Source: a virus
Taxonomy: Duplodnaviria > Heunggongvirae > Uroviricota > Caudoviricetes
Virus record (IMG/VR): IMGVR_UViG_2547132417_000017
DNA: 22,980 bases
Direction: 5' to 3' (one strand)
Under the pieces are notes generated by a model. It was not told where the DNA came from and ran no database searches. It saw nothing but the letters and a program-made list of their open reading frames with translations. Made by a program: the position numbers and the translations under genes. Positions 159 to 12,305 of this stretch are shown piece after piece; position 1 is the stretch's first letter, and each line of letters opens with the position of its first letter.

Positions 159-477
159 TAAGAATTCCCTCTCATGTAAAAAGAGACACCATAAAGGTAC
201 TGTGTGGTGTTTGAAAATCACTCAATTATGTACCACCCACCACAACAGGGGAAGACCCATAAATATACAGTAACCCTATGGGAGGGATTTCATGGTTGGC
301 GAACATTTCAGCCGAACGCAGCAAAAGTGGGCTTGTGTGCAATTTATTGCCGAGGTATCTCTGATTGCAAACTGCAAGCCATCAGACTTAAAGCTCGCGC
401 TCACTCTCATTGCAGACCTAGCAAACAGCGAAAATAACGAAACCGAAGATGATAATTTTTATAAGGCTGATTAGATT

Positions 478-711
478 ATGAGAATCAATATCACGTTGGA
501 TAAAGAGCAAAAAATTAGTCAGGCAACGTTGGATGCACTTGAGGCTGAGCTGTACCGCAATCTTCAACCTATTTACCCAAAGACTGCTATCCGCATTCGT
601 AAGGGCTCAGCTAATGGCGTTGAGTTAAGCGGTTTGAAACTGGACGAAGATAAAAAACGAGTAATGGAAATCATGCAGCAGGTATGGGAGGACGATAGCT
701 GGCTGCATTAA
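478..711 (+). CDS. dinI: DinI-family DNA-damage-inducible protein (77 aa)
   Basis: Translation MRINITLDKEQKISQATLDALEAELYRNL...MEIMQQVWEDDSWLH has the length and hallmark motifs of DinI/MsgA-like proteins, including the acidic C-terminus with W-x-DD-W. Family call is from memory, not a search. Confidence 0.7.
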   Translation: MRINITLDKEQKISQATLDALEAELYRNLQPIYPKTAIRIRKGSANGVELSGLKLDEDKKRVMEIMQQVWEDDSWLH

Positions 712-904: not shown

Positions 905-1114
905 ATGCATCGACTACCGGGCGAAATTCCGCAGCACAAAACTAAAAGCATAAAACTGATGGCTATCGTTCATCGCTTGCAGACGATAATGGTCAATGAG
1001 AACCTGACGCCAGCGGAATTGGTCGGGTGTGCAGAAATAGTCAGGGATAACTACGATAAGCTGAACGATATCAGCAGGCCGACACAATATGCGCCACCAC
1101 CATGTCGAAGATAG
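905..1114 (+). CDS. Hypothetical small protein (69 aa), no recognisable family
   Basis: ORF with GAGGG about 8 nt upstream of the ATG. Sits between the two copies of the repeat and is co-directional with the dinI-like and HNH genes. Confidence 0.45.
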   Translation: MHRLPGEIPQHKTKSIKLMAIVHRLQTIMVNENLTPAELVGCAEIVRDNYDKLNDISRPTQYAPPPCRR

Positions 1115-1116
1115 CG

Positions 1117-1192
1117 AACGCCGTCGGCGCTGAAACTTGCTTTCGGTACTGGAGGGTTGAACAACGAGTCCCTCTAGGGGTTAGTCTGTTCC
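1117..1192 (+). repeat. Copy 2 of the ~75-nt conserved element, starting 3 nt after the stop of the 69-aa ORF
   Basis: AACGCCGTCGGCGCTGAAACTTGCTTTCGGTACTGGAGGGTTGAA...GGGGTTAGTCTGTTCC. Same position relative to a stop codon as copy 1; the hairpin is retained with two mismatches. Confidence 0.6.
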
Positions 1193-1207
1193 GTAGAGAT
1201 TGGCCCA

Positions 1208-1232
1208 AACCGGCACTATTAAAGCCGGTTTT
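1208..1232 (+). terminator. Putative intrinsic terminator after the 69-aa ORF and repeat copy 2
   Basis: AACCGGC (1208-1214) pairs with GCCGGTT (1224-1230) around a 9-nt loop, followed by T residues. Confidence 0.35.
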
Positions 1233-1326
1233 CGTATGTCCAATCTAAAGAATGGGGGCTGACATCCCATCATCAGATTTGTGTTATTTTAGTGCTACTC
1301 ATTCGTCATTAGACATTGTAAGGGCA

Positions 1327-2043
1327 ATGTATATGAAACCAAGCACACACTGCGTTTATTGCGGTGTTCTCATGAATAAGGTTGAAAATCCCCCCCACTG
1401 CCGCTCAGTTGAACACATGATTCCGCAAGTTTCAGTCTCCATTCATAGAACCAACGGCGAAGGTGATTTCTATGTATGCAAAAAGTGCAATGGCGATAAA
1501 AGCCGAATTGACGAGGTGTTAGGTGTCATTTGCCGCATGGTAGGAGAGCACTCAACAGGCAGCTTTGATGCTGTTAATAAATTCCATAATGCGCTTAAAA
1601 GAAAAGACTCGAAATTTCGTGAAGCATTCCAGAGTGTTAGGCATACAAAAAAAGGTGCGCAGATAACATTACCCCTAAATGGTAGGGAGATTTACCAATA
1701 CGGCACCTGGTTAGCCAAGGGAGTATTTTTCTTAGAGTATGGGCAATTGTTGACTGTAGATAAATTAATTTGGATTAATATCGTTCGCCACGATGAAGTA
1801 ATGGCTATTAAAGAAATGTATAGAAATGAACGTGGCTCTGAGGCATTTGATGATTTATCGAAGAATAGCAACATTCCAAATATTAATGGCGAGTCGTTTC
1901 TGATTGTTGGCCAGGATGCCCGAGAAATGTTTATTTGCTTCAATAGAGTAATGATGTTTCATATAAAGATACTGGATAGAACGTTTATTAATCAAAAAAA
2001 ATGCAAAAAAGCCCTACTCAATCTGGAAAAAAGGGTTCGATAA
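1327..2043 (+). CDS. HNH endonuclease-domain protein with an uncharacterised ~170-aa C-terminal domain; AT-rich cargo gene
   Basis: HNH signature in the translation: CVYCG ... VEHMIPQ ... RTNGEGDFYVCKKCNGDKS. Start is ambiguous: the ORF opens at 1252 with no SD, while ATGs at 1327 and 1333 follow AAGGG. The gene is markedly more AT-rich by eye than the flanking structural genes and sits on the far side of cos. Confidence 0.6.
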   Translation: MYMKPSTHCVYCGVLMNKVENPPHCRSVEHMIPQVSVSIHRTNGEGDFYVCKKCNGDKSRIDEVLGVICRMVGEHSTGSFDAVNKFHNALKRKDSKFREAFQSVRHTKKGAQITLPLNGREIYQYGTWLAKGVFFLEYGQLLTVDKLIWINIVRHDEVMAIKEMYRNERGSEAFDDLSKNSNIPNINGESFLIVGQDAREMFICFNRVMMFHIKILDRTFINQKKCKKALLNLEKRVR

Positions 2044-2188
2044 GATAAATAAGATGTAATGAATGTGTGCATGCCACTGCATTTTTTTGCATGCGTTGAT
2101 CCAACCGCCAAAACATAAGGAGTACCGGTAGTAGCTTAGCTAAAGCGAGGTCATGCAACTGCATTAAAACCGACCCATAAAGCGGGCA

Positions 2189-2207
2189 GGCGTGGCGGGG
2201 AAAGCAT
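2189..2207. other. Putative cos cohesive-end sequence of a P2/186-family phage
   Basis: GGCGTGGCGGGGAAAGCAT is present at 2189-2207. From memory the P2 19-nt cohesive end is GGCGAGGCGGGGAAAGCAC and the 186 one is GGCGTGGCGGGGAAAGCAT. The location, about 490 bp beyond the 3' end of portal gene Q, fits P2 genome organisation. Confidence 0.5.
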
Positions 2208-2433: not shown

Positions 2434-2658
2434 ATGGATAACTATCACATTACAAAAGATGGCGATAAGTGGAAGCTTCAAAAGGAAGGAAATGAGCGGC
2501 CTAGCAAGACTGCAACAACTAAGGCTGAGATCATCAAAGATACTCAAGATTACATGTCCAATAAGACTGGCTCAGTAAAAATTCACAAAGAGGATGGGAA
2601 GTTTCAGGAAGAGCGCACTTACCCTCGTAAAGCTGATCCTAAAAAGTCCAAAGGTTAA
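2434..2658 (+). CDS. DUF2188-like small protein (74 aa)
   Basis: Translation MDNYHITKDGDKWKLQKEGNERPSKTATTKAEI...GSVKIHKEDGKFQEERTYPRKADP matches the DUF2188 pattern (N-Y-H-V/I-T, G-x-W-x-V/L-x-K-E-G, I-H). GGAGG lies 6 nt upstream of the ATG at 2434. The longer ORF from 2374 has no SD. Confidence 0.6.
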   Translation: MDNYHITKDGDKWKLQKEGNERPSKTATTKAEIIKDTQDYMSNKTGSVKIHKEDGKFQEERTYPRKADPKKSKG

Positions 2659-2695: not shown

Positions 2696-3742
2696 TTATT
2701 CCGGGTTGTCGAGGGTGTACTCTTTGAACCTGATGACCTCTATACCGAGCCAGTCGTTTACCTCCCTGAACCTGTCCTGCAGCGGCGACAGCTCGTTACG
2801 CACAAATACCTTTGCCACCTTCTCAACGTCACCGAGTGAGCCGATATTCTCGGGCTTGCCACCCATTAGCTGGAACGGCACGCGGTGCGCATCCATCAGG
2901 TCGGCGGCACTGGCTTTCTTGATATTGAAAAAGTCATCCTTTGTGGCGACCTCGCTCAGTGGCACGATTTTGATGCCGTCCGGTTTTCCGCCGGGGGCGT
3001 AGAAAAACAGGTTCTTAAAGTTGCCGAGCCCTTTCGAGTTACGCATCGCCTCGCGTAGTGATTCGACGTCGGTCGCGCTCTGCGCCGGGTCGGTCACATA
3101 CATGATGTAGCCCGCGTGCGCGCCGTTCTGGTAATACTTGCGACGGAACAGCGTCGCGGATTCATTCAGCCAGGCAGAATTAAGCGCGCTGAGATATTCC
3201 GGCAGGCCGTAAATCTCCTGATTAATATCAGGCTCCAGCAGGTGAAACACGGTGTCAGGCGCGAACTCATGCGGCTGAGTGAAGTTTTCCACAAACCAGA
3301 AAATTGAATCATCAACCCCACGGCGGGTGTATTTTGCTGGTGATGCCAGCAACTTGATTAACTGGCCGGTGACGCTGTGGCGCTGCTCAAGAAAAGCGTT
3401 GCCGAAGACCAGATAGTCGAGAGCAAAACGGCTGAAATCCTGACGGGACAGCAGCGGGTGCGGAATGTAGGTGCTCGCGAGTACGTTGCGTTTAACGTAA
3501 ATCGGTGAGCTGTGATGTACGGCAGAGCGCAGGCTCTTTGCCAGCCCGGAAAAGCTGACCGGCGGCTCGTACCATTTGCCGTTACTGATGCACTCGACAT
3601 AATCCAGAATGTCGCGCTTATCGAGCACCGGAACTGGCTCACCGAAGGTGAACGCTTCCATTTTTTGCGGTGCGCTGGCTTTCAGTTGCTGTGGTGCGCG
3701 TGTTTTCTGCGCGGCGGCTTTGCGGGATTTTTGCTTACCCAT
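2696..3742 (-). CDS. Q: Portal protein (P2 gpQ-like)
   Basis: 348-aa translation has the size and sequence character of P2-family portal proteins and sits immediately downstream of the terminase gene on the same strand. Confidence 0.92.
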   Translation of the reverse strand: MGKQKSRKAAAQKTRAPQQLKASAPQKMEAFTFGEPVPVLDKRDILDYVECISNGKWYEPPVSFSGLAKSLRSAVHHSSPIYVKRNVLASTYIPHPLLSRQDFSRFALDYLVFGNAFLEQRHSVTGQLIKLLASPAKYTRRGVDDSIFWFVENFTQPHEFAPDTVFHLLEPDINQEIYGLPEYLSALNSAWLNESATLFRRKYYQNGAHAGYIMYVTDPAQSATDVESLREAMRNSKGLGNFKNLFFYAPGGKPDGIKIVPLSEVATKDDFFNIKKASAADLMDAHRVPFQLMGGKPENIGSLGDVEKVAKVFVRNELSPLQDRFREVNDWLGIEVIRFKEYTLDNPE

Positions 3743-5511
3743 TAGTTGAACTCCAGAATAGATTTAGGCTGCATGCCGCTACCGGCAGAAAGCGGTTCGT
3801 TTAACAGGGCGTGCATGGTCGCCCATGCGATATCGGCGTGACTGGCTTCCTCGGTGCGGCTGGCCTCGTAGGTGGCGCTGCGCCCGCTGCTGGTCATGGT
3901 TTTGCGAATCGACATAAACGACTGCGTGACGTCGGTTGCCCCTGCGTCGTACTCCAGACAGCCACGGCGAATGGTGTCTTTTGCCTTGAGCACCATTGCG
4001 GTTTTCATTTCAGGTGTGTAACGGATGCCGCGTGCTGCCGGGTAGAATGAGCGCACCAACTGGAACACGCCGAGGCCGAGGCCGGTTGCGTCAATGCCGA
4101 TGTATTCGACGTTGTATTTCTCGGTCAGCTTGCGGATGCCCTCTGCCTGCGCGGCAAAGTCCATGCTTTTCCATTGGTGGCGCTCCAGCATGCGGAACTT
4201 GCTACCCGAGACCACCGGCGGTGCGAGCACGACGCACCCGGCACTGTCGCCAGTGTGCGACGGGTCGTAGCCAATCCAGACCGGGCGAGAACCGAAAGGA
4301 TGGTCGGCGAACGGGGCAAAGTCCTCCCATTCTTCCATCACATCGACCATGCAGCGCTGCAGCTCCTCGAACGGGAATACCGATGCTTTATCGTCGACAA
4401 ACTCGCACATAAACAGGTTTTTAAAATCATCATCACTGTTTTCTCGTTTGAGCTGGTCGAGGTCGAACAGGGTGCAGCCCCCGGCAAGGGCATCCTCAAT
4501 GGTGACAATCTGCCGCCACTGGCCATCGTCGCAGAGCTGACCACCGGCGAGCGCGCGGTGACTGATGTCGATTTCGATGCGGTCAGCGGCACTGGCGCGC
4601 CCCTTGTTGAACAGCTCACCAGACCAGAAGGGGTAAGCCCCGTGCGCCAGTGTTGAGGGTGTCGAAAAGTAGGTCGAGCGCAGGTGCTTCTGCGAAGCCA
4701 TGCCCGAGGCGACTTTGCGCAGTTTCTGAAAGTTCGGGATCCAGAATATTTCATCGACATACAGGTCGCCGTTATGGCTCTGCGCGGTGTTGGAATTGGT
4801 ACCGAGAAAAATCAGTTTTGCGCCGTTGTTACCGATGGCAATCGGGTCGCCGGTCAAGTCAACGTCGACCAGTCGTGCAAACTGGATGATGTATTCGCGA
4901 AACACGTAAGCCTGCGTTTTACTGGCTGATAAAAATATCTGGTTATGGCCTGTTTTGAGCGCGCGCAGCAGCGCCTCGCGGGAGAAATAGAACGTCGCAC
5001 CAATCTGGCGGGATTTGAGAATGTCACGAATACGGTGCTCCAGTCCTGCGCGGTACCACTGCAACTGGTACTCGAAAGACTGGTCGAAAAATAATTCCTC
5101 CAGTTTCTCGATAGCCTCGTCGCTGAAAAAATTCTTTTTCGGCTTTTTGCGCTCCCCTTTGTTGCGGTTGGCGACGTTGGGGTTAAGGTCGGCTTCGTTG
5201 CCGGTCTGGCTGTAGCGGTTGACGCGCGCCAGCCGCTCAATCTGCCGCCCGAGCAGGTCAATCTCTTTGAAATCACAGCCCGTCTTCTGTGGTTTCGCGA
5301 TGAGCTGAATCAGGCGCGCCTCAAGGCTGCTTTCAACGCGGGAAATCGGTGCGATGCCGTCCCAGCCGTCGCGCTGCTTCCAGCTCTGCACGGTCGGGCG
5401 CTTGACCTGCAGCATTTCGGCAATCTGTGGCACGGAAAAGCCCTGCCAGTAAAGCAGCGATGCCTGTCGTCGCGGGTCATGCAACAAGGTTGTATCGGTG
5501 GAAATGGTCAT
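3742..5511 (-). CDS. P: Terminase large (ATPase) subunit (P2 gpP-like)
   Basis: 589 aa with an N-terminal helix-turn-helix-like region and a terminase ATPase/nuclease body. Position divergent from O, as in P2. Confidence 0.93.
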   Translation of the reverse strand: MTISTDTTLLHDPRRQASLLYWQGFSVPQIAEMLQVKRPTVQSWKQRDGWDGIAPISRVESSLEARLIQLIAKPQKTGCDFKEIDLLGRQIERLARVNRYSQTGNEADLNPNVANRNKGERKKPKKNFFSDEAIEKLEELFFDQSFEYQLQWYRAGLEHRIRDILKSRQIGATFYFSREALLRALKTGHNQIFLSASKTQAYVFREYIIQFARLVDVDLTGDPIAIGNNGAKLIFLGTNSNTAQSHNGDLYVDEIFWIPNFQKLRKVASGMASQKHLRSTYFSTPSTLAHGAYPFWSGELFNKGRASAADRIEIDISHRALAGGQLCDDGQWRQIVTIEDALAGGCTLFDLDQLKRENSDDDFKNLFMCEFVDDKASVFPFEELQRCMVDVMEEWEDFAPFADHPFGSRPVWIGYDPSHTGDSAGCVVLAPPVVSGSKFRMLERHQWKSMDFAAQAEGIRKLTEKYNVEYIGIDATGLGLGVFQLVRSFYPAARGIRYTPEMKTAMVLKAKDTIRRGCLEYDAGATDVTQSFMSIRKTMTSSGRSATYEASRTEEASHADIAWATMHALLNEPLSAGSGMQPKSILEFN

Positions 5512-11519: not shown

Positions 11520-12305
11520 TTATAAAGTTAAGTTTATCCCCAGCTCTTTTTTTGCAATATCTAATACATATTCGGAATTACTCCAAGAACCATTGGTGTC
11601 TCCACAACACTCAGGGCTCAGGCATATGGTCAAGCAGGCTATTTTATTCTTATCAATGCCCGCCCTTACTGTTTTAAATAACTCCTTAATGAACGCGTCA
11701 TCAATAAATTTAAGATAATGTTCACCTGTGAAGAAGTAGTCAAGATCAATATTGATGATGATTTTTTCATGGTTATCAATGGCGCTATCTAAATTCTCAA
11801 GAAGCTCATAAGGCTCAATGTCTCTGAAGCAATGATTAAAAGGATTCTGCGGGTATGTGCCATCATTGTGTGTTGCTAGATAAATACACTCAATATGGTT
11901 TTGAAGTGCATCATCTGAAATAAAAAAGGATAGATAATTATCCCACCGTATCAGTGGTGTTTTATTACCACCGACTGTTACCTCTAGACTTAAGTAGTCT
12001 AGATAGGATTTTAAATTGAACACCCCCGGAAATTTACTTATATAGGGTTCGTATAGGTTGAGAGTATCATAATGCCTATCAATATGAAATAATGCGATAT
12101 TTTTATCAGGCTGTAAGTGTTGCATCCAGCACCATAGTGCGATTCTATGATTGTCACTAATGTATATATTACCATCCTGAGCAAGGAAGTTTAAATTATA
12201 TGCCAATGATGGGCCTTTTTGGGTTGGCGGAATTAACAACTTCATAAGAACTCCATATAAAATATGTTTTCCCAGCAATGCTAACGCAAGAGCAATGCTT
12301 TTCAT
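11520..12305 (-). CDS. AT-rich cargo gene of unknown function between S and V; possible metal-dependent hydrolase fold
   Basis: Full ORF is 261 aa. A better-supported start is the second ATG at 12245 (GGAG 5 nt upstream, 241 aa); the first ATG at 12305 has only a distant AGGGA. Contains H-I-D-R-H-Y-D and I-D-L-D-Y-F motifs reminiscent of arginase/deacetylase-type metal sites. Opposite strand to the late operon and much more AT-rich by eye than its neighbours. Confidence 0.6.
   Translation of the reverse strand: MKSIALALALLGKHILYGVLMKLLIPPTQKGPSLAYNLNFLAQDGNIYISDNHRIALWCWMQHLQPDKNIALFHIDRHYDTLNLYEPYISKFPGVFNLKSYLDYLSLEVTVGGNKTPLIRWDNYLSFFISDDALQNHIECIYLATHNDGTYPQNPFNHCFRDIEPYELLENLDSAIDNHEKIIINIDLDYFFTGEHYLKFIDDAFIKELFKTVRAGIDKNKIACLTICLSPECCGDTNGSWSNSEYVLDIAKKELGINLTL

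Follow-up and report, generated by a model that had tools for sequence, protein, structure and literature searches.

A predicted HNH nuclease joined to a C-terminal domain of no known family is encoded directly before the cos site of a P2-family prophage in a 22,980-nt stretch of viral DNA (IMG/VR record IMGVR_UViG_2547132417_000017, Caudoviricetes; the whole stretch is here called the window). The reading favoured here, with modest confidence, is that of an autonomous one-gene anti-phage nuclease cassette, much as the first-pass annotation had proposed from the letters of the window. In such a cassette, a terminator, a promoter of its own and the gene would occupy the cos-proximal slot of a 186/PSP3-like prophage, and the product would consist of a zinc-finger HNH domain (of the PtuB/Cas9-HNH/HNH_5 type), a helical linker and an alpha/beta C-terminal domain. 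Expressed in the lysogen, the protein would shield it, and hence the prophage, from other phages or mobile elements, with the HNH domain cutting nucleic acid as the effector. Two modes of action are conceivable for the C-terminal domain: (i) it could hold the HNH domain inactive until an infection cue, in the style of abortive infection; or (ii) it could pick the substrate (for example modified or foreign DNA), in the style of restriction.

A cargo cassette in the cos-proximal hotspot

The cassette, its gene and the adjoining cos site are laid out as follows.

1169-2148, plus strand: cargo cassette, about 980 bp at 40% GC; PSP3 and its relatives match on both flanks, not inside
1207-1231, plus strand: hairpin AAACCGGC-9 nt-GCCGGTTT, then TTTTCG (−15.7 kcal/mol, z −3.4; 0 of 200 shuffles as good)
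1282-1290, plus strand: candidate extended −10 element, TGTTATTTT, read by eye, in a block kept between the window and the Escherichia coli P13-6 prophage
1333-2043, plus strand: HNH coding sequence, 236 amino acids (aa), supported by homologue starts, dN/dS and an AAGGG motif; 236-aa forms are deposited
2189-2207, plus strand: cos cohesive end of the 186 type, 19 nt, GGCGTGGCGGGGAAAGCAT; 2188 is the last position reached by the linear PSP3 record, and 2189 the first of the cos annotated in Erwinia phage EtG

Similarity of the window to phages PSP3, SEN1, SW9 and Midge extends to position 1168 and resumes at 2149 (in PSP3, SEN1 and Midge the upstream block begins at 259), and this match on the flanks only marks 1169-2148 as what is evidently a replaceable, mobile cassette. 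The contents of the slot vary among P2-like phages: PSP3 carries an unrelated 139-aa gp38 there, phage 613R3 a 313-aa gene on the minus strand, and P2 itself old and tin, where 195 bp lie between cosR and the start codon of old. The placement given by the first-pass annotation, just beyond cos as seen from the portal gene and in the slot of P2 old/tin, thus held up: the HNH gene stands between gpA/tum/dinI on one side and cos/portal on the other, with 145 bp from its stop codon to cos.

The region between gpA and gpQ next to cos was described as a defence hotspot with 1,650 gene arrangements by Rousset et al. 2022 (PMC9122126), in whose work more than one-third of the systems cloned from P2 and P4 hotspots were active against phages. 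The HNH gene, lying between gpA and gpQ by cos in a variable slot, has the position of such P2-like hotspot cargo. Moreover, an arrangement of this kind is already catalogued: Table S5A of the same paper lists a hypothetical protein, DinI, two further hypothetical proteins and DUF2188, with accessions WP_000232651, WP_001222154 and WP_001507779, which are the three genes upstream of the HNH gene here. The fourth accession of that entry, WP_032143468, would then be an older one for the HNH protein, unannotated there. In a 2026 survey (PMC13586616), six of eight P4-hotspot loci of unknown function protected against phages. No paper on this family came up when the literature was searched by accession and for single-gene HNH defences in P2 hotspots.

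The hairpin at 1207-1231, on which the general hairpin scan made no call since its loop is 9 nt, looks like an intrinsic terminator that would insulate the HNH gene from transcription of tum, dinI and the 69-aa open reading frame (ORF) upstream. Homology with the cassette of E. coli P13-6 begins exactly at this hairpin. Downstream of it, TGTTATTTT is a possible promoter of the gene's own, with CTGACA (1259-1264) as a candidate distant −35 element.

The HNH gene, its start codon and its selection

The ORF reported earlier at 1252-2043 on the plus strand exists, encodes 263 aa and contains the motifs CVYCG, VEHMIPQ and CKKCNGDK; its start was set wrongly, by 27 codons that are not conserved. About 20 homologues, including every full-length one, begin at M28 of the long ORF, which is ATG 1333, as does the profile of phrog_31193 (PHROGs, no annotation), which matches over its full length (E 1.2e-170, residues 28-263 against profile positions 1-236). 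A Shine-Dalgarno-like AAGGG lies 8 nt upstream of this ATG. Because homologues and phrog_31193 begin there, the start is almost certainly ATG 1333, with a product of 236 aa. The candidate promoter, if used, would place ATG 1252 outside the transcript. The RefSeq/PGAP start at 1372 (M41 of the long ORF, giving 223 aa) drops the segment STHCVYCG and with it the first conserved CxxC of the zinc finger, and for that reason is judged too short. Forms of 223, 236 and 263 aa of the same protein are deposited side by side.

The marked AT-richness that had been noted for the gene was borne out against the structural genes (GC 39.1%, and 39.7% at third codon positions, versus 56.3 and 68.5% in portal plus terminase), yet is not a property of the gene alone, as the accessory arm at 1-1168 is AT-rich too (44% GC). 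By sequence evidence of composition and slot, the gene is taken to be horizontally acquired cargo.

Compared with the P13-6 orthologue (86% aa identity), dN/dS is 0.095 overall, 0.20 in the HNH part and 0.07 in the C-terminal part; against more distant orthologues the synonymous sites are saturated, while the proteins are still 55-70% identical. The gene is real, and both of its halves are under strong purifying selection.

An N-terminal zinc-finger HNH core

1333-1542, plus strand: predicted zinc-finger HNH (beta-beta-alpha-Me) core, residues 1-70, with C7, C10, E27-H28, C49, C52-N53, K56 and D60

Since the window protein alone falls below every Pfam and NCBIfam HNH threshold (and a PDB sequence search with it also returned nothing), the assignment of its N terminus draws on the family as a whole. 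Among 39 aligned family members, Pfam HNH_5 matches 22 (best E 1e-6) and Pfam HNH matches 15. The family profile matches two structures in PDB: 4h9d, an HNH endonuclease (E 1.6e-4), and 4ogc, in which the match is to the HNH domain of Actinomyces naeslundii Cas9 (E 0.011). Both alignments span the pattern CxxC...(D/E)H...CxxCN..K, in which H28 and N53 pair with the DH and CN of the two structures. Across the 39 sequences, down to 18% identity, H28, C52, N53 and K56 are invariant, and both CxxC pairs (C7/C10 and C49/C52) are conserved in the family.

The AlphaFold2 (AF2) model made from a deeper alignment is confident (predicted local distance difference test, pLDDT, 95.5; predicted template-modelling score 0.92) and has strands at 23-27 and 46-49 and a helix at 50-70, that is, a beta-beta-alpha motif. 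The core proper spans residues ~5-60 of the 236-aa form. The features by which the HNH superfamily is recognized are thus all found, namely an acidic residue followed by His at the end of the first strand, an Asn at the start of the helix, a beta-hairpin plus helix and two CxxC pairs. The HNH signature seen in the first reading of the N terminus is borne out by these results, and the N terminus is, as judged from sequence and model, a CxxC...EH...CxxCN zinc-finger HNH nuclease domain with catalytic residues and zinc ligands intact. The protein would accordingly be predicted to have nuclease activity.

A C-terminal domain without known relatives

1543-2040, plus strand: helical linker (residues ~71-100) and family-specific alpha/beta domain (~101-236)

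The linker and C-terminal domain make up ~135-170 aa in all and are modelled with a pLDDT of about 96; the topology of the domain is equal in the first and second structure models. Two motifs are conserved in it, Y123-x2-(W/F)LAKGxYF and G-S-x-x-F-(D/E)-D-L-x-x-N. The earlier remark that this part could be assigned to no family was upheld in Pfam, NCBIfam, PDB, BFVD and Foldseek. Across the 39 members, Pfam and NCBIfam gave no consistent family over the C-terminal part, nor did any viral-structure family match, and Foldseek searches of PDB and BFVD with the first model (in which the HNH part had a pLDDT of 50-63) returned nothing at E<=0.001. Protein-kinase matches to this part, at E 0.02-1.7, were taken as chance. 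An independent family of the C-terminal domain was also considered and set aside, the C-terminal-only matches of the exhaustive search described below having the look of truncated ORFs.

One account of such a domain is DNA recognition, which would make the protein a free-standing homing endonuclease or selfish nuclease that cuts cassette-free P2-like genomes near cos and is copied in by repair. The top Foldseek matches, although insignificant, are TATA-box-binding-protein folds, which bind DNA. Against this, the HNH core is of the zinc-finger HNH_5/PtuB/Cas9 type, and none of the 39 members has a Pfam match to NUMOD, IENR1, AP2 or HTH at E<=1. Neither is there an intron or intein context, and Rfam finds no family in the window. 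The two computational findings that the first-pass annotation had set beforehand as counting against a defence gene, a homing DNA-binding module and an intron, were therefore both missing from the searches made (Pfam and Rfam, respectively).

Distribution and genomic contexts of the family

An exhaustive profile search of 1.84 billion representative proteins yielded 84 family members, nearly all of ~235 aa and matching end to end. The two-part architecture is constant in the family, which has no conserved partner. The gene is rare: it was found in seven of 5,426 complete E. coli genomes (four at 99.9% identity and three at 85%) and in one of 50,697 phage records, and in a scan of species-representative genomes Kosakonia arachidis was the only match.

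Members in P2-like prophages of enterobacteria (E. coli, Salmonella, Citrobacter, Cronobacter, Klebsiella, Kosakonia and Lelliottia) are nearly always the last gene before cos, with 186-type and P2-type cos alike. The immediate upstream neighbour varies (the 69-aa ORF, none, a 243-aa membrane protein, DUF6680, a 106-aa ORF, or SIR2 plus an 84-aa ORF). Distant members, at 28-36% identity, lie in a P4-like satellite with a Toprim primase and Ogr/Delta, in an element with AlpA and an integrase, in another phage and on Shewanella plasmids. Because the upstream neighbours differ and the distant members stand alone, the cassette is proposed to be autonomous.

Several of these contexts hold known or candidate defence genes, a recurrence that agrees with the earlier proposal of a defence locus. 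The SIR2 neighbour in Kosakonia matches PDC-S25 (E 2.5e-145), and in E. coli P13-6 the neighbour is a 535-aa Ser/Thr kinase resembling PD-T4-6 (E 9e-36). Elsewhere the gene adjoins a restriction endonuclease (REase)-like protein (locus L004), a methyl-directed REase (mREase_II, E 2e-65) together with PDC-S15 and PDC-M14A (L009), and a DUF4238 gene that starts 6 bp downstream (L033), DUF4238 being protective against T7 (PMC9122126). On a Shewanella plasmid the neighbour is Dsr1.

Two further arrangements were observed. In P13-6 (L002, 6083-10477) and in L019, the HNH orthologue is followed by the kinase, cos, two unknown genes and the portal gene; ‘Bandua' is a nuclease-plus-kinase system of P4 hotspots (PMC13586616). 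In a metagenome contig (L007, 1407-2967), a 259-aa protein with a CapH-like helix-turn-helix domain (E 3.6e-8) is encoded 47 bp upstream of a homologue at 31% identity and perhaps serves, in that lineage, as its dedicated transcriptional regulator.

The same distribution bears on homing. A small, solitary, low-GC HNH gene set between conserved phage blocks, at the same place relative to cos in otherwise diverged P2-like phages and with no partner gene, is what a homing nuclease would look like. However, the slot takes many unrelated cargos, homologues are also found at sites unrelated to it (on plasmids, next to rsmB, within a defence island and in a P4-like satellite), and the gene is very rare among P2-like phages, unlike an active homing element. 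Taken together, homing is quite unlikely. It is instead plausible, though held more tentatively than the cassette reading itself, that the family is a new single-protein defence family: a PtuB-like HNH nuclease without PtuA, controlled by an attached alpha/beta sensor or targeting domain and spread by P2-like phages, P4-like satellites and plasmids.

Proximity to cos

In nine of ten P2-like arrangements, GGCGTGGCGGGGAAAGCAT or its P2 variant lies 127-195 bp past the HNH stop codon. A position that is last before cos in nine of the ten, and with both cos types, would also suit a role in the phage life cycle, either as a helper of cos cleavage and packaging in the manner of HK97 gp74 or as an early-infection nuclease for host takeover, counter-defence or attack on cos-bearing competitors such as P4. 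In HK97, too, the HNH gene is the last one annotated at the right genome end, and its product gp74 reportedly aids the terminase (Kala et al. 2014). Nevertheless, P2, PSP3, SEN1 and SW9 package normally without the gene, as do nearly all P2-family phages, and homologues occur where neither cos nor terminase is nearby. A relationship to gp74 was rejected on an hhalign probability of 1%, on the single phage record that holds the gene and on its absence from P2 and PSP3. The proven defence gene old of P2 holds the same cos-adjacent position, and since it does, the hotspot by itself accounts for the location. A life-cycle role is accordingly rated as unlikely. That the fixed place beside cos reflects action on cos-bearing competitors is a speculation compatible with the defence reading.

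Prophage setting and neighbouring genes

The window covers two parts of a P2-family prophage of the 186/PSP3 type, its late-gene half and the right-hand end of the early region. The gene order in E. coli Ecol_545 is CI, CII, Fil, gpA, TumA-like, DinI, the 69-aa ORF, HNH, DUF2188, gpQ and gpP. The genes around the cassette are:

292-474, plus strand: TumA-like gene, 60 aa
478-711, plus strand: DinI/TumB gene
905-1114, plus strand: 69-aa ORF (orf69)
2434-2658, plus strand: DUF2188 gene, cargo beyond cos, matching the PADLOC candidate PDC-S16
2696-3742, minus strand: portal gpQ
3742-5511, minus strand: terminase gpP

At 292-711 (plus strand) an SOS antirepressor module is formed by the 60-aa TumA-like gene and the DinI-like TumB gene as separate genes, as in PSP3 (98% identical). 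This split module puts the prophage, on sequence grounds, with 186 and PSP3 (the Eganvirus-like group) and not with P2.

Co-directional with the HNH gene, orf69 and the dinI-like gene had been suggested as co-transcribed partners, and a multi-gene system could indeed be imagined in which orf69 and/or DinI serves as antitoxin or regulator, or in which DUF2188 takes part from across cos. With 40% GC and a match to PDC-S16 (E 1.4e-13), the DUF2188 gene opens the left arm after cos; in addition, an ‘AAA_21 + DUF2188 + HNH' arrangement is present in the P4-hotspot table of PMC9122126, from which it is suggested that DUF2188 may be linked to Septu-like modules elsewhere. The comparative evidence runs the other way. 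TumA, DinI and orf69 are backbone in PSP3, SEN1 and SW9, all without the HNH gene, and are found without it in 613R3 also; conversely, in P13-6 the HNH gene directly follows TumA, with no DinI or orf69. Hairpin terminators part the dinI, orf69 and HNH genes, one standing after dinI and one ahead of the HNH gene. Because the backbone occurs without the HNH gene, the HNH gene occurs without the backbone genes and hairpins lie between them, the upstream genes are not regarded as partners, and that suggestion was dropped. DUF2188 was likewise rejected as an obligate partner, being absent beside the HNH homologues in L002, L003, L006 and L020-L025; in the linear genome cos parts the two genes. With no neighbour kept across ~14 distinct contexts, the multi-gene account appears largely refuted and is considered very improbable.

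A GC-rich hairpin of the form (C/T)(C/G)(G/A)GTGCTG-loop-CAG(Y)(R)C(Y)GG recurs at gene boundaries within the hotspot. In the window it follows dinI (714-760; −36 kcal/mol, z −4.2), and a second, degenerate copy stands behind orf69 (1116-1160); in PSP3 it comes after gp37, and in loci of the Klebsiella type it immediately precedes the HNH gene. Possible roles of the hairpin are those of a shared terminator, of a junction at which cassettes are swapped by recombination, or of both. Further copies are:

L015, 2368-2396: recurrent hairpin
L020, 5915-5943: recurrent hairpin
L023, 5401-5429: recurrent hairpin
L026, 4988-5016: recurrent hairpin

Two other features of the prophage were observed away from the cassette. 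In the near-identical prophage of Ecol_545 (L001, 11357-12783), an IS21-family element (ISEc12 istB) breaks the major capsid gene, so that this prophage copy is defective; the HNH gene is still intact there. In the window, a 261-aa ORF on the minus strand (11520-12305), amid plus-strand tail and baseplate genes, matches UPF0489 (E 5.6e-8) and has no PADLOC match. A different variable slot of the prophage, with this ORF as a second cargo gene, is the probable explanation.

Evidence weighed and implications

Several results weigh against the defence reading: (i) in the 2026 survey (PMC13586616), 15-32% of unknown P2-hotspot proteins were predicted to be defensive, which makes association with the hotspot weak evidence; (ii) none of the PADLOC models matches past the HNH core; (iii) no recognisable sensor fold was found in the C-terminal domain by Foldseek with the first model; (iv) a consensus promoter scan made no call at 1282-1290; (v) a distance to cos that hardly varies (127-195 bp) would also suit a role connected with cos; and (vi) some of the homologue contexts tell little or are of a housekeeping kind, as with the distant member beside rsmB (L013). 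The homing, life-cycle and multi-gene accounts are nonetheless less likely than the defence reading.

Were the protein found to be protective, a compact one-gene nuclease system of ~0.7 kb would join the defence repertoire and would illustrate how an HNH effector of the Septu type can be kept under control when the ATPase partner is missing. The C-terminal domain, well folded in the model and conserved, could be a new module for sensing or substrate recognition. Two points are of practical use for annotation: ‘hypothetical' entries in the existing P2-hotspot catalogue continue to conceal recognisable effectors, and the RefSeq start for the family cuts off part of the active-site zinc finger.

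Comparison with known systems

In position, the closest parallel is old/tin of P2, which likewise lies between gpA and the cohesive end on the right, about 200 bp or less from cos, and is non-essential lysogenic-conversion cargo. It differs in that the proteins are unrelated (Old combines an ABC ATPase with TOPRIM), the genes are on the opposite strand and their phenotypes are proven. HK97 gp74 is also encoded at the right genome end beside cos, as the product of the last annotated gene of HK97, but has 119 aa and no extra domain, besides the hhalign result given above. Moreover, the P2-family terminase works without an HNH protein, and most P2-like phages are without the gene.

In its nuclease core, the protein shares CxxC...(D/E)H...CxxCN..K with Geobacter Gmet_0936 (4h9d) and with the Cas9 HNH domain (4ogc). 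These are a bare HNH domain or a part of a large protein, respectively, and neither has the C-terminal domain seen here.

Among defence systems, PtuB (Septu and Retron-Eco7/Ec78; TIGR02646) is the best match of the window protein in the defence library. The PADLOC check of the locus that had been recommended with the first reading thus did return a candidate, although the match is weak for the window protein alone and covers the HNH core only; across the family, PADLOC PtuB models match 22 of the 39 members. PtuB and the present family are alike in having an N-terminal HNH domain, a four-Cys zinc finger, a catalytic His and an extra C-terminal region within ~215-240 aa, and both occur in phage and satellite hotspots. 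In PtuB, which has been characterized with its four-Cys zinc finger and catalytic His, the C-terminal domain consists of three helices that dock onto PtuA (PMC12673091), whereas the domain here is an alpha/beta one of ~135 aa. The similarity is limited to ~55-65 residues of the HNH core (positions ~43-108 of a profile of ~216), and TIGR02646 gives no match for the window protein and three weak ones among the 39 members, all at E 0.017 or weaker. Neither the window nor any of ~14 distinct homologue contexts has an adjacent gene for the PtuA ABC ATPase; an AAA gene was seen once, starting ~0.9 kb downstream on one Shewanella plasmid. Given the core-only similarity, the unreached TIGR02646 threshold, the lack of an adjacent PtuA and the different C-terminal domain, PtuB is, on sequence comparison, the closest characterised relative of a protein that is not itself a member of the PtuB family. 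It is in this comparison that most of the interest lies: a confidently folded C-terminal domain without known relatives, together with the loss of the ATPase partner.

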